From the NCBI GenBank assembly GCA_036270875.1, contig DATBBR010000051.1:8582-72581 (forward strand): 64,000 nt of DNA, in the 5' to 3' direction. How positions within the stretch are numbered: the stretch's first letter is position 1; each line of letters starts with the position of its first letter. The position numbers and the translations under genes are program-made. Shown piece by piece: positions 2-42,976 of this stretch. Origin of the DNA: Acidimicrobiales bacterium (GTDB lineage Bacteria; Actinomycetota; Acidimicrobiia; Acidimicrobiales; AC-9). The notes beneath the pieces are model-generated. The model did no database searches. It was not told where the DNA came from and saw only the letters and a list, made by a program, of their open reading frames with translations.

Positions 2-985
2 GTGAGCCACCGCCTCATCACCGATCGAGACCACACGGTGGCCCCAGTGATCCTGGTCGACGGGCACAGGGCCGTCGCCTCCGTCCCCGTACGACCGGGC
101 GACCGGATCGAGCTCCGGCAGGGGTCGGCCGTCGAGCCGACGGTGGTCCGCCTGGTGAAGCTCGATCCAGGTGCGGCGAGCTCCCCCGGAGCCGCCGGCG
201 CTGCCGGCAGCTCCGGCACGGGCCAGCCCGGCCTCGTCGCCACTGCGCCGATGGGCGACGTCCGCGCCGGGTTGCCCGACGTTGAGCGCACGCTATGGCA
301 CCCGGGCTCGGCGGCGTCGCTGGCCGAGCGGGTAGGCGAGCTCAGCGGCGAGGTCGTTGCCACGTCACCGGTGGCCTCCGCCTCGCCCGTCCAGCCCGAG
401 GCCGATCGCGTCGTGGCTCTCACGTTCGACGATGGGCCGGACCCGACCTGGACGCCAGAGGTGCTCCGTATCCTGGGCGCCGAGCGCGTCCCGGCCACGT
501 TCTGCGACATCGGCCGCTGGGCCTGGGCCCATCCGGAGCTCGTCCGAGCCGAGGTGGCGCAGGGGGAGACCGTCTGCGACCACACGGTCGACCACGACAC
601 CACACTCAACTACGCGTCCCACGCCCGAGTGGCGTTTGAGGTCGGACGGGGAGCGGACCTGATCGAGGCCGCCGCCGGCGTGCGACCCCGCTTCTATCGG
701 CCGCCGGCCGGCGTCCTCTCGCCCGACGTGATCGCGACCGCCCACGCTCGAGGGCTGCGCGTGCTCACCTGGTCGATCGATCCGAGCGACTACCTGGTAC
801 CGCCGCCTGATGTCCTGCTGTCGCGCATCCTCTCCCAGGTGCGCCCCGGCGCCGTGATCCTGCTCCACGACGGCGGGGGGTTCCGGGGCAACACCGTTGG
901 CATGCTCGCCCAGCTCATCGACACGCTGAGGGCCGAGGGCTACCGCTTTACGACGCCGGCCCAGGAGGTACCGGCCGCGTCGTAG
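2..985 (+). CDS. Polysaccharide deacetylase (NodB homology, CE4), possibly 5'-truncated by the window edge
   Basis: CE4 motifs TFDDGP, HTVDH, RPPAG, WSIDPSDY and LLHDG in the translated ORF; the N-terminal half is a low-complexity linker and the true start may lie upstream of base 1. Confidence 0.85.
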   Translation: MSHRLITDRDHTVAPVILVDGHRAVASVPVRPGDRIELRQGSAVEPTVVRLVKLDPGAASSPGAAGAAGSSGTGQPGLVATAPMGDVRAGLPDVERTLWHPGSAASLAERVGELSGEVVATSPVASASPVQPEADRVVALTFDDGPDPTWTPEVLRILGAERVPATFCDIGRWAWAHPELVRAEVAQGETVCDHTVDHDTTLNYASHARVAFEVGRGADLIEAAAGVRPRFYRPPAGVLSPDVIATAHARGLRVLTWSIDPSDYLVPPPDVLLSRILSQVRPGAVILLHDGGGFRGNTVGMLAQLIDTLRAEGYRFTTPAQEVPAAS

Positions 986-1466
986 GGGAGACGTCGACCT
1001 GGCACGTCTCGTCGATGCCGAGGACGCGCAGCAGACGGCCGAGCCCGAGAAAGGTGGCCACACAGATCGTGAGGTCGAGGATCTCGGCGTCGGTGAAGCT
1101 CTCCCGCAGCCGGATGAAGAAGTCATCATCGATCCGGGTGTGGTCGAGCACGAACCGCTCGGCGTACTCGATAGCCAGCCGCTCCTGTTCCGAGTAGTCG
1201 GCCGTGCGGTACTCGGCGACGTGACGGTAGAATTCCTCGGTGAGTCCCTGCTGCGTCACCGACGCAGCCCGAAAGCTCAGTCAGATGGGACAGTCGTTGA
1301 GCTGGGCGATGCGCATCCGCGCCGCCTCCCGGACGCGGACCGGCAGAATGCTCTTGTTGTAGGCGGCATCGCTCAACCGGGCCACAGCCCCGCCCATCTC
1401 CGGTCGCAGCGACCAGACCTGGACGGCGTCGCCGCCCTCACCCTCGGGAATGTCGATGCGAGCCAT
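948..1466 (-). CDS. AhpD/carboxymuconolactone decarboxylase-family protein with in-frame UGA (probable selenocysteine, CxxU), 172 aa
   Basis: ATG at 1466 gives MARIDIPEG...REAARMRIAQLNDCPI, then TGA (1283-1281), then in the same frame LSFRAASVTQQGLTEEFY...ERLAIEYAERF...EILDLTIC to the stop at 948. The two ORF-track fragments are in frame and together form one CMD/AhpD-like protein; a SECIS-like hairpin follows the UGA. Confidence 0.8.
1241..1279 (-). promoter_or_regulatory. Bacterial SECIS-like stem-loop
   Basis: After the UGA the mRNA reads C UGAG C UUUC GG GCUGCGUC GGU GACGCAGC A GGGA CUCA: perfect 8-bp upper stem, GGU apical loop starting 20 nt after the UGA, 2x1 internal loop and a lower stem. 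Confidence 0.75.
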
Positions 1467-1471
1467 TCGTT

Positions 1472-2695
1472 TCAGCCGACCGAGGCGGGGCTTGCCGAGA
1501 AGGCGACGGGCATGTGCTTGATCCCGTTGATGAAGTTCGAGCGCAGGCGCCCGACCGGTCCCGCCAGCTCCATGTCGGGCAGGCGACGGAGCACCTCGTC
1601 GAAGATGACCCGGATCTCGAGCCGGGCGAGGTTGGCGCCGAGGCAGAAGTGGGGACCCCCGCCTCCGAAGGAGATGTGCTCGTTGGGGGAGCGCCCGACG
1701 TCGAAGCGGAACGGGTCGGGGAACACGGTGTCGTCCCGGTTGGCAGAGATGTACCAGATCACGACCTTCTGGCCCTCGGCGACGGGCTGGCCGAGGATCT
1801 CGATGTCGCGCTGGGCCGTCCGGCGGAAATGCATGACCGGCGTCCCCCACCGCAGCATCTCCTCGATGGCACTCGGCAGGAGGGACGGATCCTTCAGCAG
1901 GCGTGCCCGCTCGTCGGGATGCTCGATGAGGGCGAGCATCCCGTGGGCGATGAGGTTGCGGGTGGTCTCGTTGCCGGCCACCGCCAAGAGCAGGAAGAAG
2001 AGGTCGAACTCGAGCTCGCTGAGCTTCTCCCCGTTCACCTCGGACCCGAGCAGGACGCTGATGATGTCGTCCCTCGGCGAGGACCGCTTCTGGGCCGCCA
2101 GCTCGTGGGCGTAGGCGTAGAGCTCGGTCGACGCCTCCATCGCGCCTTCCTCGGTGGTCTGGTACTCCGGGTCCTCGGAGCCGATCATCCGGTTGCTCCA
2201 GTCGAACACGAGGTGGCGGTCCTCCTGGGGGACGCCCATGATCTCGGCGATCACCTGGAGGGGCAGCTCGGCTGCGATGTCGGTGACGAAGTCGCACTCG
2301 CCCTTGGCAGCCACGGCGTCGACGATCTCCCCCGCCAGCACCCGGACCCGATCCTCGAGGCGGCCAACCATCCTCGGGGTGAACCCCTTGTTCACGAGGA
2401 GCCGGTAGCGGGTGTGCATGGGCGGGTCCATGTTGAGCATCATCATGCGCTGCTGGGCCAGCATCTCCTCGTCCTGGTCCATGAGCAGCGCGCTGCCCCG
2501 GTTGGAAGAGTAGGTCTCCCAGTCGCGGTTGATGGCCACCACGTCCTCGTAGCGGGTGACGGCCCAGAAGCCCGAGCCGTCGGGCTCGTCCTGCCAGCAG
2601 ATCGGCGCCTTGGATCGCAGGGTCGTCAGCATGTCGTGGGGCACGCCGCGGACGAAGACGTCCTTGTCGGCCAGGTCCACGTCAGAGATCTCCAC
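1472..2695 (-). CDS. Cytochrome P450 (CYP124/CYP125-like lipid or sterol omega-oxidase)
   Basis: I-helix AVAGNETT, EEMLR (ExxR) and heme motif FGGGGPHFCLG; GAGGAGG SD upstream of GTG 2695. Subfamily is inferred from overall resemblance. Confidence 0.9.
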   Translation of the reverse strand: MEISDVDLADKDVFVRGVPHDMLTTLRSKAPICWQDEPDGSGFWAVTRYEDVVAINRDWETYSSNRGSALLMDQDEEMLAQQRMMMLNMDPPMHTRYRLLVNKGFTPRMVGRLEDRVRVLAGEIVDAVAAKGECDFVTDIAAELPLQVIAEIMGVPQEDRHLVFDWSNRMIGSEDPEYQTTEEGAMEASTELYAYAHELAAQKRSSPRDDIISVLLGSEVNGEKLSELEFDLFFLLLAVAGNETTRNLIAHGMLALIEHPDERARLLKDPSLLPSAIEEMLRWGTPVMHFRRTAQRDIEILGQPVAEGQKVVIWYISANRDDTVFPDPFRFDVGRSPNEHISFGGGGPHFCLGANLARLEIRVIFDEVLRRLPDMELAGPVGRLRSNFINGIKHMPVAFSASPASVG

Positions 2696-2729
2696 GGGCA
2701 GTCCTCCTCGGCGCGGGAGCCTGGATCTG

Positions 2730-2735
2730 ATTCTA
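2730..2735 (-). promoter_or_regulatory. Putative -10 element (TAGAAT) of the P450-AhpD transcript
   Basis: Near-consensus TAGAAT on the minus strand 34 nt upstream of the P450 start, with the SD in between. Confidence 0.5.
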
Positions 2736-2760
2736 TGTCAGCTCGAGCGTGGGCGGGAGA

Positions 2761-3337
2761 TCAGGGGAAGATCGAGTTGCCGAAGAGCAAGTTCAGGGTG
2801 CCGGTGTTGGCGACCGCCAGGCCACCGTCGGGGAGGGGCTGGCGCAATCGGTTCACCCCGATGAAGTTGCTGGTCAGGAGGTTGCGGGAGTCTTGCCGTT
2901 CGTCGTCAGCCCGACGATGTCGGGATCGACCTTCACCCCCGAGGCATTGCCCGCCAGCTCGATGCCGTTGTCGTCGTTCCCCGAGAAGACGTTCGTCCGA
3001 ACCTCGTTGTTGCCTCCGGCGGACGTGATGAGCAGGCCGTCGTTGCCGTTCGCGGCGGCTCCCTTGAAGGCCAGCAGACCACCGAAGGTGTTGAAGGTGA
3101 TGAACCCGTTGACCGTGTCGCGGACCTCGATGCCGTTCTGGTGGTTGCGTAATAGACGAACGGGTTGTTCACGAACTGACAACCGATCAACTGGTTGTTG
3201 TCGGACCCGCTGACAGATACTCCGTCAAGACCGTTGCCGATCGCCCCATCCCCGTTCGCTGTGGTCCCTACGAAGTTGCCGTTGACGACGTTGCTCTGCG
3301 AGCCGCCGGTGATCGAAATGCCAGTGTGCAGAGACAT
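2761..3337 (-). pseudogene. Degraded right-handed parallel beta-helix repeat protein
   Basis: Three frame segments with Asn/Gly beta-helix repeats (NVVNGNFVGTTANG...GNGLDGV; NHQNGIEVRD...NVFSGNDDNGIEL; LTSNFIGVNRLRQPLPDGGLAV...GNSIFP-stop at 2761), frame changes near 3149 and 2885, no N-terminus, visibly lower GC than flanks. Confidence 0.7.
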
Positions 3338-3450
3338 GCAAAAGGGACTTCACGAAAGGTGAAAATCACCACGATTCCTGCCCCGCACCCCCAGGGAGAC
3401 AGCGAGTGGCCGAACTTGTCGGGAAAACTGGCATGTGTTCTACTCGGGCC

Positions 3451-4362
3451 ATGAGTGGCATCTGTGACGGTCGGGTGGTCATCGTGACGGGCGCGGGTCG
3501 CGGCATCGGCCGGGGCCACGCGCTCGAGTTCGCCCGCCAGGGCGCCAAGGTCGTGGTCAACGACCTTGGCGCCGAGGTGGACGGGACGGGTGGGTCGTCG
3601 GGGGTCGTCGGCGAGGTCGTCGACGCGATCCGCGCTGGCGGTGGGGAGGCGGTGGCCAACGGGGACGACGTGGCCGACTGGCAGGGCGCACAGCACCTGA
3701 TCTCGACCGCCCTCGAGACCTGGGGACGCCTTGACGTGGTGGTCAACAACGCGGGCATCCTTCGGGACCGGATGCTGGTGAGCATGACCGAGGACGACTG
3801 GGATCTGGTCATGCGCGTGCACTTGAAGGGCACCTTCTGCGTCAGCCACCACGCCGCCGTCCACTGGCGGGAGCTGGCCAAGGGGGGCGAGCCGGCCGAC
3901 GCCAGGATCATCAACACCAGCTCGGCCGCCGGGCTCTACGGCAACGTGGGGCAGACCAACTACTCCACGGCCAAGGCCGGCATCGCCGCCTTCACCGTCG
4001 TGGCCTCGGCCGAGCTCGGCCGCTACGGCGTGACCGCGAACGCCATTGCTCCCATGGCCCGCACACGGATGACCGAGTCGTTGTTCCCCGAGATCATGGC
4101 CAAGCCCGAGGAAGGCTTCGACAAGATGGCGGCCGAGAACGTGGCTCCCCTGGTGACCTGGCTCGGGAGTGCCGAGTCCAAGGACGTCACCGGGCGGGTC
4201 TTCGAGATCTTCGGCGGGCTGATCGCGGTGGCCGAGGGGTGGCGACGGGGCCCGTCCATCGACCAGGAGGACCGCTGGGACCCGGCCAAGCTCGGCCCCG
4301 TGGTCCGCGACCTCGTCGAGAGCGCCCAGGCGCCGAGGGTTATCGGGGCCTCACCCGCCTGA
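3451..4362 (+). CDS. Short-chain dehydrogenase/reductase (3-oxoacyl reductase-like, steroid-catabolism type)
   Basis: TGAGRGIG, VVVNNAG and YSTAK motifs; ATG 3451 chosen because the SDR fold begins there. Confidence 0.9.
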   Translation: MSGICDGRVVIVTGAGRGIGRGHALEFARQGAKVVVNDLGAEVDGTGGSSGVVGEVVDAIRAGGGEAVANGDDVADWQGAQHLISTALETWGRLDVVVNNAGILRDRMLVSMTEDDWDLVMRVHLKGTFCVSHHAAVHWRELAKGGEPADARIINTSSAAGLYGNVGQTNYSTAKAGIAAFTVVASAELGRYGVTANAIAPMARTRMTESLFPEIMAKPEEGFDKMAAENVAPLVTWLGSAESKDVTGRVFEIFGGLIAVAEGWRRGPSIDQEDRWDPAKLGPVVRDLVESAQAPRVIGASPA

Positions 4363-5772
4363 TCGGGTGCCCTGGCGTTCCTCCGCCAGCTTGCGCAGCT
4401 CCTCGACGGCCTCGGTGAAACCGGTGGCGATGTCCCACAGGTCGGGGACCATCTCCCGGCAGGCGATCGCGCCGAAGTCGACCGAACCCATGTTGGACAG
4501 CACGGTGAGGTTGAGCCCTGCTCCTTCGATGATCGGCCCGAACGGATAGACGGCCAGGACGCGGGCGCCGGCGCTGTACAGGGGGACAGGCGGTCCGGGG
4601 ACGTTGGAGATGACCAGGTTGTGCACGACCGGATGGCGGTCGGCCAGCTTGCTGGCCGAGTAGAAGCGGGCGGCCCGGGCGAAGACGGCCGGTGCCGCGA
4701 ACTCGGCCCAGTTCTGGAGGGCATCGGCGCCGATCGCACCGTGGACGTCCTTGGCCGACTTGGTGTCGCTCCGGATGTGCAACAGCCGCTCGATCGGGTC
4801 CTCGATGTGCACCGGCAGCCCGACGAACATGGCCGAGAGCTGGTTGCCGGGCTGGTCCTGCTTGTCATCCGAGCGGACCGAGACCGGCACGGACGCCACG
4901 AGGGACTTCTCGGGCAGGTCGTCGTGCGCGATCAGCCACTTGCGCATGGTGCCGGCGCAGGCAGCCAGCACGACGTCGTTGACCGTCGTGCCGTAGACCT
5001 TCTTCACCAGCTTGAAGTCGTCGAGGGAGGCCTTGCCGAAAGCGACCGCCCGGTGCGGGGTGACTGCGCCGCTGAAGCTCGTGCGGGGAGCGGTGAAGGG
5101 CAGTGTGGCCGCCGGGCCCTCGTTGCGCCGGACCACGCGGAGCAGCTCCAGGGCCGACCGACCGGTCCGGGCCATTGTCGGGAACACCTGCGGCCAGTGA
5201 CGGATGCGGGACGCGACCGAGTGGGTGACGAGCTCGACATCCGAGGGCTTGTGCTCGGGTTGCCACTCCTGCTCGGGCGGTTCCACCTTGGTGTCGGGCT
5301 CGAGGTCGAACAGGTGCACCATGAGGTCGGCACCCGACACTCCGTCGATGACGCAATGGTGCATCTTGGCGATGAGTGCCACATAACCGTGCTCCAGCCC
5401 CTCGGCCACCCACATCTCCCACAGGGGCTTGCTCCGGTCGAGGGGGCGGCTGGCGATGTTGCCGACGAGCTCGGCGAGGTCCTGAAGCGTCCCCGGCGCG
5501 GGTACGCCGATCCGGAAGAGATGGTTGTCGATGTCGAAGGCCGGGTCCTCGATGAGAAGGGGGTGGGCCAGCTGGAAGGGCACGGTCATGACCCGCTCGC
5601 GAAATGGCGGCAGGAGGTGCATGCGGCTGGTCAGCATCTGCTTGACGGTGTCGATCGAGTAGCCGCCCGGCATCGTCGACGGGTCGAGGAGGATCACCCC
5701 CGTCACGTGCATGTGCATCGACGGTGTCTCGGCGTACAGGAAGATGGAGTCGAGACCGGAAAGTCGTCTCAT
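4351..5772 (-). CDS. Wax ester synthase/diacylglycerol acyltransferase (WS/DGAT)
   Basis: N-terminal RLSGLDSIFLYAETPSMHMH, catalytic HHCVIDG (HHxxxDG), TVNDVVLA and SNVPGP. Confidence 0.93.
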   Translation of the reverse strand: MRRLSGLDSIFLYAETPSMHMHVTGVILLDPSTMPGGYSIDTVKQMLTSRMHLLPPFRERVMTVPFQLAHPLLIEDPAFDIDNHLFRIGVPAPGTLQDLAELVGNIASRPLDRSKPLWEMWVAEGLEHGYVALIAKMHHCVIDGVSGADLMVHLFDLEPDTKVEPPEQEWQPEHKPSDVELVTHSVASRIRHWPQVFPTMARTGRSALELLRVVRRNEGPAATLPFTAPRTSFSGAVTPHRAVAFGKASLDDFKLVKKVYGTTVNDVVLAACAGTMRKWLIAHDDLPEKSLVASVPVSVRSDDKQDQPGNQLSAMFVGLPVHIEDPIERLLHIRSDTKSAKDVHGAIGADALQNWAEFAAPAVFARAARFYSASKLADRHPVVHNLVISNVPGPPVPLYSAGARVLAVYPFGPIIEGAGLNLTVLSNMGSVDFGAIACREMVPDLWDIATGFTEAVEELRKLAEERQGTRSGG

Positions 5773-7440
5773 CTATGCCCCCTTTGGCGAGGCGACCGGC
5801 TCGATGGCGCGGTCGCGAGCCCAGCGGTAGTCGGCCTTGCCGCTGGGCGATCGAAGGATCTTGTCCACCACCAGCAGCTGGCGCGGGACCTTGTATCCCG
5901 CCATCCGCTCCCGAGACCAGGACCGGATGTCGTCCAGCTCCAGGTGCTTACCGGTGCGGGGCTCGACCACGGCGACCACCCGCTCCCCCCAACGCTCGTC
6001 GGGCACACCGACGACGACGGTGTCGAAGATCGCCGGGTGACTCTTGAGGACCGCCTCGACCTCTTCGGGGTAGACCTTCTCACCGCCGGTGTTGATGCTC
6101 CCCGAGCCCCGACCGAGCAGCACGACCGTACCGTCCTCTTCGACCGTGGCCATGTCGCCGGGCAGCACCCAGCGCACGCCGTCGACCTCGACGAAGGTGC
6201 TCGCCGTCTTGGCTTCGTCCTTGTAGTAGCCGAGCGGGATGTGCCCCCGGCGGGCCAGGCGGCCGGTCACCGCCGAACCGGGGACAACGGGCCGGAGCTG
6301 GTCGTCGAGCACCGTGGTCTGCTCGTTGAGGGTGAACCGGGGCAGGTCGTCGCCGGCCGACGAGCCGGGCAGGCTCGACCGGCTCCCGACGGTGCCCGTC
6401 TCTGACGCCCCGAAGCCGTCCACGATCAATGCGTTCGGCAGGTGCGATGACAGCGCCTGCTTGGTGGAAGGAGACAGGATCGCGCCGCCGGACCCGATCA
6501 CGATCAGCGTCGACGTGTCGTACGGCTCGCCCGCCCCGGCCAGGGCGTCGGCGAGGGGGCGGGCCATGGCATCACCCACGATCACGAGGACGTTGACCCC
6601 CTCGCGCCCGATCAGGGTCCAGATCGTCTCGGGATCGAAGCGGCCGTGGGGCGTGACCACGAGCCTGCCACCGCCGAAGAGCGACGTGAACGCCAGCCAA
6701 TGGGCGCTCACGTGCATCAACGGCGGCGTGGCCAGCGTGACCAGCCCGGTGTCGGGGAGCCGCTCGACCAGCTCCTCGGGCCGGCTGATGAAGTCGCCCG
6801 ACTGGAGAGGGTCGCCTCCGCCCATGGCGGCGAAGAAGATGTCCTCGTGACGCCAGAGCACGCCCTTGGGCATCCCGGTGGTGCCGCCCGTGTAGGCGCA
6901 GTAGATATCGTCGCTCGAACGAGGTTGGAAGTCCCGGTCCGGCCGCCCGGCAGCCACCGCCTCCTCGTAGCCGACCGCACCGGCGGGACACCGCTCGTCG
7001 GTCCCGTCGTCCACTACCACCAGGCTGTGCAGCAGCGGAAGGTCTGGGGCCACCGCGGCGACACGGGGGGAGAACTGCCGGTGGAGGACGACGGTCACGA
7101 GGTCCGCGTCATCGAAGAGCTGAGCCAGCTCGGCGTCGACGTAGCGGTAGTTGACGTTGATGGGTACGGCCCTGATCTTGAATGCGGCCAGCATGGCTTC
7201 GACGTACTCGGCGCCGTTTAGCAGCTGGAGCCCCACGTGGTCGCCGGCTCGGACCCCGGCTGACTGCAGGTGATGGGCGAGACGGTTGGCCCGCCGGTCG
7301 AGCCCGGCGTACGTCAGCCGACTCTCACCCGCGACGAGCGCCTCGCGGTCGGGAATGGCGTCGGCCACCAGCTCGAACAGGTCACAGAGGTTGAACGTCC
7401 GAGATGGTCGTGTCGGATCCCCAGCATCCTGACGTACCAT
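5773..7440 (-). CDS. Acyl-CoA synthetase / AMP-binding enzyme (FadD19-like)
   Basis: YTGGTTGMPKG P-loop, GFGASE, INTGGEKVYPEEVE and PRSPSGK; start placed at ATG 7440 (7449 also possible), not the ORF-track 7653. Confidence 0.88.
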   Translation of the reverse strand: MVRQDAGDPTRPSRTFNLCDLFELVADAIPDREALVAGESRLTYAGLDRRANRLAHHLQSAGVRAGDHVGLQLLNGAEYVEAMLAAFKIRAVPINVNYRYVDAELAQLFDDADLVTVVLHRQFSPRVAAVAPDLPLLHSLVVVDDGTDERCPAGAVGYEEAVAAGRPDRDFQPRSSDDIYCAYTGGTTGMPKGVLWRHEDIFFAAMGGGDPLQSGDFISRPEELVERLPDTGLVTLATPPLMHVSAHWLAFTSLFGGGRLVVTPHGRFDPETIWTLIGREGVNVLVIVGDAMARPLADALAGAGEPYDTSTLIVIGSGGAILSPSTKQALSSHLPNALIVDGFGASETGTVGSRSSLPGSSAGDDLPRFTLNEQTTVLDDQLRPVVPGSAVTGRLARRGHIPLGYYKDEAKTASTFVEVDGVRWVLPGDMATVEEDGTVVLLGRGSGSINTGGEKVYPEEVEAVLKSHPAIFDTVVVGVPDERWGERVVAVVEPRTGKHLELDDIRSWSRERMAGYKVPRQLLVVDKILRSPSGKADYRWARDRAIEPVASPKGA

Positions 7441-7477
7441 CAGGAGCATGCTAGTTGGTGGCCGTGAGGGTGAGGCG

Positions 7478-7519
7478 GGGTCGCAGACGGGGTCAGCTGG
7501 GTCGCAGAGGGGGTCAGCT
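7478..7519. repeat. 21-bp tandem duplication in a divergent intergenic region
   Basis: gggtcgcagacggggtcagct followed by gggtcgcagagggggtcagct (one mismatch). Confidence 0.8.
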
Positions 7520-7588
7520 GGGAGGCCGCTGCCGGCCGAGGTGTACCGGCTGCTGGTTCGCGCTGCCGAACCCCCCGTCCGCATCGCC

Positions 7589-8773
7589 ATGACCGCGCCG
7601 CGTACAGCTGCGTTCGTGGCCCGCTCCTGGGCCCGCAGCCGGCGGCCACCCATCCCCGCCTATCCGCCCTCGCCGCAACCGAGCGCCGGGCTGGCGGCCC
7701 AGGTGGCGATGGACGAGCTGCTCCTGGCCGTCATGAAGAGCCCGAAGCGCTACCCGCACCGCGCCGACTACGAGCGCGTCGGGCGAGAGGTCCTCGAGGC
7801 GGCCGACCTGTTCGAGAGCCGGGGATGGCTGACCGATACCACCTCCTACCACCCTGACCCGCCGGCCCTGTCGTCGCCCACCATCGAGGCCTGCAGGCCG
7901 CTCGACCTGGCCTGGACGCGGGGGATCTCGTACGAGCACCTGTGGTTCGAAAGCGGCTACGAGCCGCACGAGGGGGAGCCGGGCCGGCGGCGATGGCTGG
8001 ACATGACGCCAAACCGGACGGCCCACGCGTGGGTCCTCCGCCATCCCGGCCCGCCCCGGCCCTGGCTCGTGTGCCTGCACGGCTTCGGGACCGGGAGCGC
8101 CATGCTCGACCTCCCGGCCTTCCGTGCCCTGCGCCTTCATCGCGACCTCGGGCTGAACCTCCTCCTGCCGGTCCTGCCCTGCCACGGCCCTCGAAAGATC
8201 AGCCGGCTGGGCTCGGACAGCCTGCTGTCGTTCGACATCCTCAACAGCATCCACGGGATCGCCCAGGGCGTCTGGGACATACGTCGGCTGCTGGGCTGGG
8301 TCAGGAGCGAGGGAGCGCCGGCGATCGGCCTCTACGGCATCTCCCTCGGCGGCTACATGACCGCCCTCCTGGCCGGGCTGGAGGACGGTCTGGGCTGTGC
8401 CATCGCCGGCATCCCGGCGGCCGACCTGCCGCACCTGTTCTTCCATCACTCTCCGCCCCAGGTTCGGCGCCGGGCCGCCGAGCACCACCTCCTCGGCGAG
8501 GAGGCGAGCCGGATCCACAGGGTGATCTCGCCGCTGGTCCTCAGATCCCGCGTGCCGCACTCGGGTCGGTTCATCTACGCCGGGCTCGCCGACCGCCTGG
8601 CCACCCCCGGACAGGCCCAGCGGCTGTGGCTCCACTGGGACCGACCCACCATCCACTGGTACCCGGGCAACCACGTCGGCTTCTACTGGGCACGCGAGCT
8701 CGGCGACTTCGTCGACAGCGCCCTCGTCTCGTCGGGGCTGGCCGACAGGCCAGCCGTCTCCGCCACGGCATAG
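7589..8773 (+). CDS. Alpha/beta hydrolase (lipase/esterase-like)
   Basis: CLHGFG oxyanion region, GISLGG nucleophile elbow, likely Asp in ADRL and His in GNHVG; start uncertain (7589 or 7709). Confidence 0.8.
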   Translation: MTAPRTAAFVARSWARSRRPPIPAYPPSPQPSAGLAAQVAMDELLLAVMKSPKRYPHRADYERVGREVLEAADLFESRGWLTDTTSYHPDPPALSSPTIEACRPLDLAWTRGISYEHLWFESGYEPHEGEPGRRRWLDMTPNRTAHAWVLRHPGPPRPWLVCLHGFGTGSAMLDLPAFRALRLHRDLGLNLLLPVLPCHGPRKISRLGSDSLLSFDILNSIHGIAQGVWDIRRLLGWVRSEGAPAIGLYGISLGGYMTALLAGLEDGLGCAIAGIPAADLPHLFFHHSPPQVRRRAAEHHLLGEEASRIHRVISPLVLRSRVPHSGRFIYAGLADRLATPGQAQRLWLHWDRPTIHWYPGNHVGFYWARELGDFVDSALVSSGLADRPAVSATA

Positions 8774-42543: not shown

Positions 42544-42574
42544 CGGCTGCTATCCTCGACGAGCAAGCCAGTCG

Positions 42575-42735
42575 CGCCTCGTTCGGTGAGGTGGCTGCTC
42601 AGACACAGGCCACTGACCCCACCTGTCGAGAGACACTCCGGGTCAGACCAGGTCACTCCGGCTCAAGGGGTGACCCAAAGTGGCTGGCCCTTCTGGGGCT
42701 TACGCTGGGCAGTGCCAAAGCTCTGACGAGTAGGG
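42575..42735 (+). ncRNA. M-box (ykoK) Mg2+ riboswitch
   Basis: Ordered conserved blocks CCTCGTT.GGTGAGG, ACACAGGCCACTGACCC, GTCGAGAGAC, GGGTCAG, CGGCT.AAGGG, CCCAAAGTGGCT and GTGCCAAAGCTCTGACGAG match the actinobacterial M-box as I recall it; upstream of a metal transporter. Confidence 0.92.
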
Positions 42736-42976
42736 GTGCACCGGGGCCTCTCGGGCCGCGGCGAGTCCGGCGCCCACCGGACGTCACTCCTGTGGGGTGC
42801 GCTGGGTCGTGGGCCGGACGAGGAGCAAGCGCTGTACGCCGACAGTTGGTTACGAACCGCCTTGGCGCGCGCTACCTGACGTAGGTCGCGAGGGCTCGGC
42901 TACGTAGCCGGGTGGCCTGAGGGTGGGCGCGTCGAGGTTCGCCCGACGTGTCCTGACGGAGGAGGTCACCTGCGCC

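Follow-up and report, generated by a model that had tools for sequence, protein, structure and literature searches.

Introduction

The class I cytochrome P450 (P450) operon, in which a P450 gene is joined by a ferredoxin gene with or without a reductase gene, is a described arrangement that the locus reported here resembles in layout. In a 64,000-nt stretch of an Acidimicrobiales genome (GenBank assembly GCA_036270875.1, contig DATBBR010000051.1, positions 8,582 to 72,581 of the forward strand; contig C51 of the genome), which we refer to as a whole as the window, a P450 gene of the CYP125 family is likewise closely followed on the same strand by a gene for a small redox protein. Unlike in class I operons, the downstream gene encodes a selenocysteine (Sec)-containing protein of the CMD/AhpD-like kind, which is not of the iron-sulfur kind and is not known to pass electrons to P450s, and the pairing is not conserved. 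An initial annotation of this DNA proposed that the two genes form a module, with the selenoenzyme protecting the P450, reducing its peroxidised lipid products or taking part in its pathway. We argue instead, with a probability of about 0.7, that these are two unrelated ordinary genes that became fortuitous neighbours in part of one Acidimicrobiales genus and that their probable co-expression is secondary.

Each gene has well-described relatives. CYP125A1 of Mycobacterium tuberculosis and the reconstructed ancestor CYP125MRCA align with the window P450 from end to end and share its heme-thiolate, I-helix and ExxR motifs. The M. tuberculosis enzyme works with redox partners that are independent of genomic proximity, and its redox partner is not encoded next to it (PMC6208970), which is also the case in the window. 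The two differ in that no cholesterol-catabolic (igr-type) operon is shown around the window P450, whose substrate is a candidate only.

AhpD-like selenoproteins with a CxxU motif have been catalogued since 2005-2008 (PMC1088965, PMC2398784; review PMC13188914), and the window selenoprotein is a genuine member of this already known kind. In the families AhpD-like 1 (COG2128/TIGR01926) and AhpD-like 2/CMD-like (PF02627), as in the window, Sec replaces the second Cys of CxxC, and Cys homologues far outnumber the Sec forms (PMC2398784, PMC1088965, PMC13188914). The window protein differs from these families in scoring far below the named NCBIfam cut-offs, in carrying Arg where CxxCxxxH has His, and in belonging to an Acidimicrobiales subfamily with leaderless-type promoters. 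The mycobacterial AhpC/AhpD system belongs to the same superfamily and has a CxxC-type active site, but no AhpC or peroxiredoxin gene adjoins the window CMD gene, the catalytic His is missing from its product, any peroxidase activity of that product is putative, and M. tuberculosis AhpD is a poor match to its fold (Foldseek E-value about 1). The initial annotation knew of no described P450-selenoprotein operon, and our literature search likewise found neither a P450-CMD nor a P450-selenoprotein operon.

Layout of the P450 and CMD genes

All elements of the pair lie on the minus strand of the window, and the two genes are separated by 5 nt; the layout and coordinates given in the initial annotation are correct. 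Four related loci recur below, namely L014, L015, L016 and L178, which come from genomes G015, G018, G013 and G019, respectively; the window belongs to genome G000. The features of the pair, in the direction of transcription, are as follows.

2735-2730, minus strand: TAGAAT, candidate -10 box upstream of the P450 gene (direct reading, motif match only)
2709-2703, minus strand: GAGGAGG, Shine-Dalgarno sequence 7 nt before the P450 GTG (direct reading; kept in L015 and L178)
2695-1472, minus strand: P450 open reading frame, GTG at 2695 to stop TGA at 1474-1472; 407 amino acids, apparently intact
1471-1467, minus strand: spacer from the P450 stop to the CMD start, 5 nt (AACGA), with neither a -10 box nor a clear Shine-Dalgarno sequence
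1466-948, minus strand: CMD/AhpD-like selenoprotein gene, ATG at 1466 to TAA at 950-948; 172 amino acids
1283-1281, minus strand: in-frame TGA read as Sec, residue 62, in the motif C-P-I-U (translation with TGA as U; codon alignment)
1241-1279, minus strand: stem-loop resembling a bacterial Sec insertion sequence (bSECIS), with the core hairpin GCUGCGUC-GGU-GACGCAGC at 1268-1250 (folding and conservation)

The hexamer matching TAGAAT reads TAGGAT in L015 and GAGGAT in L178, and we regard TAGAAT as a candidate -10 box of the P450 gene on the strength of a motif match only. A scan of positions 700-3500 for sigma-70 promoters, run with an E. coli consensus that tells little about the DNA of a high-GC actinobacterium, returned zero promoters, and a terminator scan of the same interval gave only terminator-like sites at chance level.

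The P450 translation matches the Pfam p450 model (E-value 4.7e-27) and carries all three motifs that were looked for (FxxGxxxCxG, (A/G)GxxT and ExxR), in the form of the heme-thiolate loop FGGGGPHFCLG, the I-helix AGNETT and the K-helix EEMLRW, as seen in alignment with CYP125 structures. Its best match among solved structures in the PDB is CYP125MRCA (63.2% identity, E-value 3e-174). It also aligns over 390 positions with M. tuberculosis CYP125A1 (7qke, a steroid C26-monooxygenase) at 47.2% identity and an E-value of 6e-110; the P450 nomenclature rule places a protein in a family when its amino-acid identity to a named member exceeds 40%. The structure of CYP124, a methyl-branched lipid hydroxylase, gives a score nearly that of CYP125A1 (E-value 2e-103). 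The ratio of nonsynonymous to synonymous substitution rates (dN/dS) against orthologues is 0.11. By these comparisons the window P450 is an intact, ordinary CYP125-family enzyme, and it probably hydroxylates sterol side chains or methyl-branched lipids at the terminal position. Its neighbours include genes of lipid metabolism, coding for a short-chain dehydrogenase (SDR; 3406-4362), a WS/DGAT acyltransferase (4351-5772) and an acyl-CoA synthetase (5773-7653).

The downstream gene encodes a selenoprotein

The in-frame TGA of the CMD gene was compared across 80 loci from Acidimicrobiales genomes whose CMD proteins are 63-94% identical to that of the window. The aligned codon is TGC or TGT in 73 of the 80 and TGA in the other 7; TGA is also found in L178, bringing the loci with TGA to 9 when the window is included. 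In all nine, a hairpin of the form GCUGCGUC-GGU-G(A/G)CGCAGC (in DNA, GCTGCGTC-GGT-G(A/G)CGCAGC) starts 12 nt downstream of the UGA, with an 8-bp stem and a GGU apical loop, and is a putative SelB-binding element. The hairpin is identical across these loci apart from one U-A to U-G change, and it is found in none of the Cys loci. Folding of the whole segment around the element gives a z-score of only -0.25, which is not significant, and in DNA this rich in GC the Sec and Cys loci cannot be told apart by minimum free energy; the case for a SECIS element rests instead on the conservation of this particular hairpin. The genome also encodes the machinery for Sec insertion, with selD (333 bits), selA (402 bits) and selB (255 bits) each scoring higher than its cut-off and a tRNA-SeC(tca) gene on contig C14. 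The Sec forms of the CMD protein make up one clade (support 97/93).

An alternative is that the CMD gene is a decaying remnant that has lost its promoter and in which the TGA is a plain stop codon. The window copy does lack both a -10 box and a Shine-Dalgarno sequence of its own, and the gene is missing from three genomes of the genus. Decay of this kind is hard to reconcile with a reading frame that is intact on both sides of the TGA and under purifying selection on both (dN/dS 0-0.09 before it and 0.23-0.62 after it), with a TGA and hairpin conserved in nine genomes from two clades that are about 70% identical, and with the full set of Sec genes in the genome, and we consider it highly improbable. 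Because the TGA aligns with Cys codons, the hairpin is shared and the Sec machinery is present, we conclude on comparative grounds that the CMD/AhpD-like gene is a genuine selenoprotein gene, as the initial annotation had suspected.

Fold and likely chemistry of the selenoprotein

The window CMD protein scores 27.3 bits against Pfam CMD (PF02627), for which the cut-off is 23. Its AlphaFold model (mean predicted local distance difference test score, pLDDT, 75.6) matches Atu0492, PA0269/AhpD, Deinococcus radiodurans AhpD and the debrominase Bmp8 in Foldseek with template modelling (TM) scores of 0.65-0.73, and the protein is accordingly modelled with the all-alpha AhpD-core fold. These structural relatives thus extend to Bmp8, a thiol-dependent debrominase.

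The CxxCxxxH motif of AhpD is incomplete in this subfamily, in which the His position is an invariant Arg (C-P-I-U-L-S-F-R; in the window, the codon of R66 at 1269-1271). Scores against the NCBIfam models are well below the respective cut-offs: 60.7 versus 310 for NF053654 (YciW-related (seleno)protein), 34.2 versus 81.8 for TIGR01926 (peroxidase-related enzyme) and 20 versus 110 for NF041047, so that neither of the first two names applies to the window protein. Given the replacement of His by Arg throughout the family and scores so far under these cut-offs, the label "peroxidase" is an assumption, and the chemistry of the subfamily may differ from that of the AhpD peroxidases. A safe description is a CxxU redox protein of AhpD fold, probably with thiol/selenol oxidoreductase activity.

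The pairing is confined to part of one genus

The 80 CMD loci were examined together with as much as 4 kb of flanking DNA to either side. A P450 gene adjoins the CMD gene in just two of them, L014 and L015, whose CMD proteins are 93-94% identical to that of the window, and in none of the 77 more distant loci. From the side of the P450, no homologue of the window CMD lies within 4 kb in any of 79 CYP125-like loci (P450s 58-73% identical to that of the window). A DNA search of the eight genomes of the genus located the pair in four (G000, G015, G018 and G019) and the CMD gene alone in G013, with neither gene in G014, G016 or G017. By the criterion that the initial annotation set for its module, conservation in relatives, the pairing fails, being limited to four of eight genomes of one genus.

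In the Cys-type clade nearest the Sec clade (L030, L033, L037 and L039; the sisterhood is weakly supported), L033 (16-597) has a distant P450 gene (37% identity) about 3.4 kb upstream of its CMD gene and three genes away, with an SDR gene, another gene and a NUDIX gene in between. Such a P450 was seen only in L033, the flanks of the other loci of the clade ending earlier.

The genome with the CMD gene alone is informative about the direction of change. L016 and L178 are sisters (synonymous divergence, dS, of their CMD genes 0.04), and L016 equals L178 minus two blocks, one of 3.3 kb of beta-helix-type sequence and the other the body of the P450 gene. Left behind in L016 are 48 nt of the region upstream of the P450 and its last ~20 nt; the L016 spacer matches the P450 3' end at 17 of 18 nt, although this match is only borderline against shuffled sequences. 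No P450 orthologue is found elsewhere in the L016 genome, where the best P450 hit is 55% identical. The difference between the two loci thus shows that L016 deleted the P450 gene and kept an intact Sec gene. We had also considered that L016 never had the P450, a reading rejected on the comparison with L178.

Elsewhere, the CMD gene occurs in at least a dozen different neighbourhoods, beside genes for YceI-like proteins, enoyl-CoA hydratase, acyl-CoA synthetase, phosphotriesterase, ThiF/rhodanese, NUDIX and MarR proteins, and the genes flanking it are often on the opposite strand. With 9-31 P450 genes per genome and so many CMD neighbourhoods, a single P450-adjacent context is unsurprising, and the adjacency in the window is unremarkable, being no more than chance would give.

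These results bear directly on the proposal of a two-gene module, in which the selenoprotein would remove peroxide from P450 uncoupling, reduce hydroperoxide products or take part in the pathway of the P450. Its attractions are the 5-nt spacing together with the fact that three of the four linked copies no longer have a -10 box belonging to the CMD gene, the retention of the pair in four species with purifying selection on both genes, and an AhpD-like fold, with alkyl-hydroperoxide reductases among the relatives. A genuine module would give P450s their first dedicated selenoprotein and form the first P450-selenoprotein partnership, and it would offer a route to better P450 coupling in biocatalysis. 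Yet the pairing does not extend beyond one genus, homologues with Cys (73) and other homologues with Sec (4) occur in many contexts without a P450 neighbour, the catalytic His of AhpD is replaced by Arg, and one adjacency is unsurprising among so many P450 genes. Because conservation in relatives failed and a sister lineage dropped the P450 while keeping the Sec gene, we find the module unsupported and distinctly unlikely.

Electron supply to the P450

The remark in the initial annotation that no ferredoxin is in sight holds for the window contig: none of the genome's Fer4_15, Fer2 and Pyr_redox_2 hits falls on C51, and a tblastn search of the window with four of the genome's own ferredoxins gave zero matches. 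The same is true of most P450 genes in this genome, 7 of 9 of which have no adjacent ferredoxin, and of 74 of the 79 CYP125-like loci, which have none within 4 kb. The absence of an adjacent ferredoxin is for this reason ordinary, and it is the normal condition of the group to which the window P450 belongs. On another contig (C85:692-4396, outside the window), a small Fer4_15 ferredoxin gene lies between two P450 genes. This is the only P450-ferredoxin cluster of the genome, and its ferredoxin is a candidate electron source for the orphan P450s.

Promoter and expression of the CMD gene

In actinobacterial promoters, a -10 box placed about 6 nt ahead of the start codon is typical of leaderless mRNAs. 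We inspected the 40 nt upstream of each CMD start in loci L016-L093 (the equivalent in the window being 1467-1506) and found that 70 of 79 loci have a TANNNT hexamer, such as TAAAGT, TAGAGT or TAGGCT, whose end lies exactly 6 nt from the start codon; 75 of the 79 have one at 4-10 nt, and almost none occurs at other offsets. The hexamer at 6 nt is a very uniform leaderless-type signature of one gene family across Acidimicrobiales. Its position suggests that in most relatives the CMD gene is a self-standing leaderless gene.

The four loci without TANNNT at 4-10 nt are the P450-linked ones of the window, L014 and L015, together with L040, which has the hexamer at 12 nt. Within 40 nt upstream of the ATG, there is no TANNNT in the window, L014 or L015. 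The fourth linked copy, L178, has the box TAACCT 6 nt before the ATG, its TAA doubling as the stop codon of the P450, and in L016, after the deletion, the box reads TAAAGT. No P450-linked copy has a Shine-Dalgarno sequence before the CMD ATG. Set against the signature of the family, the P450-linked arrangement of the CMD gene is the derived one.

Since the window CMD gene has no TANNNT box, no visible Shine-Dalgarno sequence and a gap of only 5 nt to the P450 stop, co-transcription with coupled translation is plausible in this genome. The two genes could also be transcribed separately, from a promoter inside the P450 3' end that would drive a leaderless or short-leader CMD mRNA. L178, in which the TAACCT box coexists with the upstream P450, fits such an arrangement, and the missing Shine-Dalgarno sequences in the linked copies fit leaderless translation. 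Against it stand the absence of any TANNNT within 40 nt of the ATG in the window, L014 and L015 and the negative scan for sigma-70-type promoters, based on an E. coli-type consensus, and we regard separate transcription as unlikely.

Loss of the box allows a further reading, in which the AhpD-like selenoprotein was captured into a CYP125 operon within the genus and now works with the P450, for instance by disposing of peroxide formed on uncoupling or of hydroperoxide intermediates from a lipid or sterol substrate, the decay of the promoter reflecting selection for stoichiometric co-expression. We hold this to be very unlikely.

A proposed history of the pair

The history that we favour, of two ordinary genes brought together by chance, can be set out as follows; layout, gene families, signals for Sec recoding and the distribution of the pair are shown above, while the order of events, like co-transcription and coupled translation, is inferred from the comparison of loci. 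The P450 and CMD genes would have been brought side by side in a common ancestor of some members of one Acidimicrobiales genus, where the P450 landed directly upstream of the CMD gene and its stop codon overlapped the CMD -10 box, a state that would still be seen in L178. The CMD -10 box would then have decayed in three lineages, including that of the window, in which the CMD gene would now be expressed from transcripts that read through from the P450 promoter, translation re-initiating 5 nt beyond the P450 stop. UGA-62 would be recoded by means of the stem-loop 12 nt downstream, using SelA, SelB, SelD and tRNA-Sec, while the P450 would draw electrons from ferredoxins and reductases encoded elsewhere in the genome, as most P450s of this genome and group have to do. 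Co-expression is then best read as a by-product of juxtaposition and not as a sign of shared function.

Several observations weigh on the other side. The pair has been kept in four species at a synonymous divergence of 0.2-0.3 with both genes under purifying selection, and some benefit of the linkage may exist. In the three lineages without the -10 box, expression of the CMD gene would depend on the P450, and selection for co-regulation, in place of neutral decay, could account for the loss. The genomes are also metagenome-assembled, and little weight attaches to the missing genes in G016 (83% complete) and G017 (68% complete).

Surrounding genes and other observations

Further features around the pair are as follows.

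2-985, plus strand: polysaccharide deacetylase gene (Pfam Polysacc_deac_1), convergent to the CMD gene, with a 38-nt overlap at the 3' end of the latter
2874-3337, minus strand: remains of a gene for a right-handed beta-helix protein, its frame broken, between the SDR and P450 genes, as two overlapping open reading frames in different frames
3406-4362, plus strand: SDR gene, divergent from the P450 gene (Pfam adh_short, E-value 9e-40; synteny)

Among close relatives, the polysaccharide deacetylase gene is found only in the window genome and is absent at this position in L015, L016 and L178. The CMD proteins of the window, L014 and L015 have a C-terminal tail (residues 160-172) that those of L016 and L178 lack. 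The beta-helix remnants, one open reading frame of which matches Pfam Beta_helix and part of which is homologous to L015, resemble the frame-shifted leftover of a larger gene; at the same position L178 holds 3.3 kb and L016 nothing, and in L016 the SDR gene is the direct divergent neighbour of the CMD gene.

An M-box (Mg2+) riboswitch lies at 42571-42742 on the plus strand (126 bits against an Rfam gathering score of 44). The Rfam gathering scan of the window gave nothing else, and nothing near the P450/CMD pair, and the window contains no tRNA genes. P450 hits in related genomes that were flagged for an internal TGA or TAG (L179, L182 and L191) were considered as Sec-containing P450s and rejected: in the 16 flagged regions retrieved, the only in-frame stops are those with which the genes naturally end, and which three alignments run over at their C-terminal end.

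Implications

For this Acidimicrobiales AhpD-like subfamily, the comparison yields a well-supported Sec/Cys pair that is usable for selenoprotein annotation. For the genus, the P450-linked loci form a natural series that suggests how a self-standing leaderless gene may become dependent on the gene upstream of it: in L178 the box is intact and overlaps the P450 stop codon, in three lineages it has decayed, and in L016, following the deletion, the gene stands alone again.

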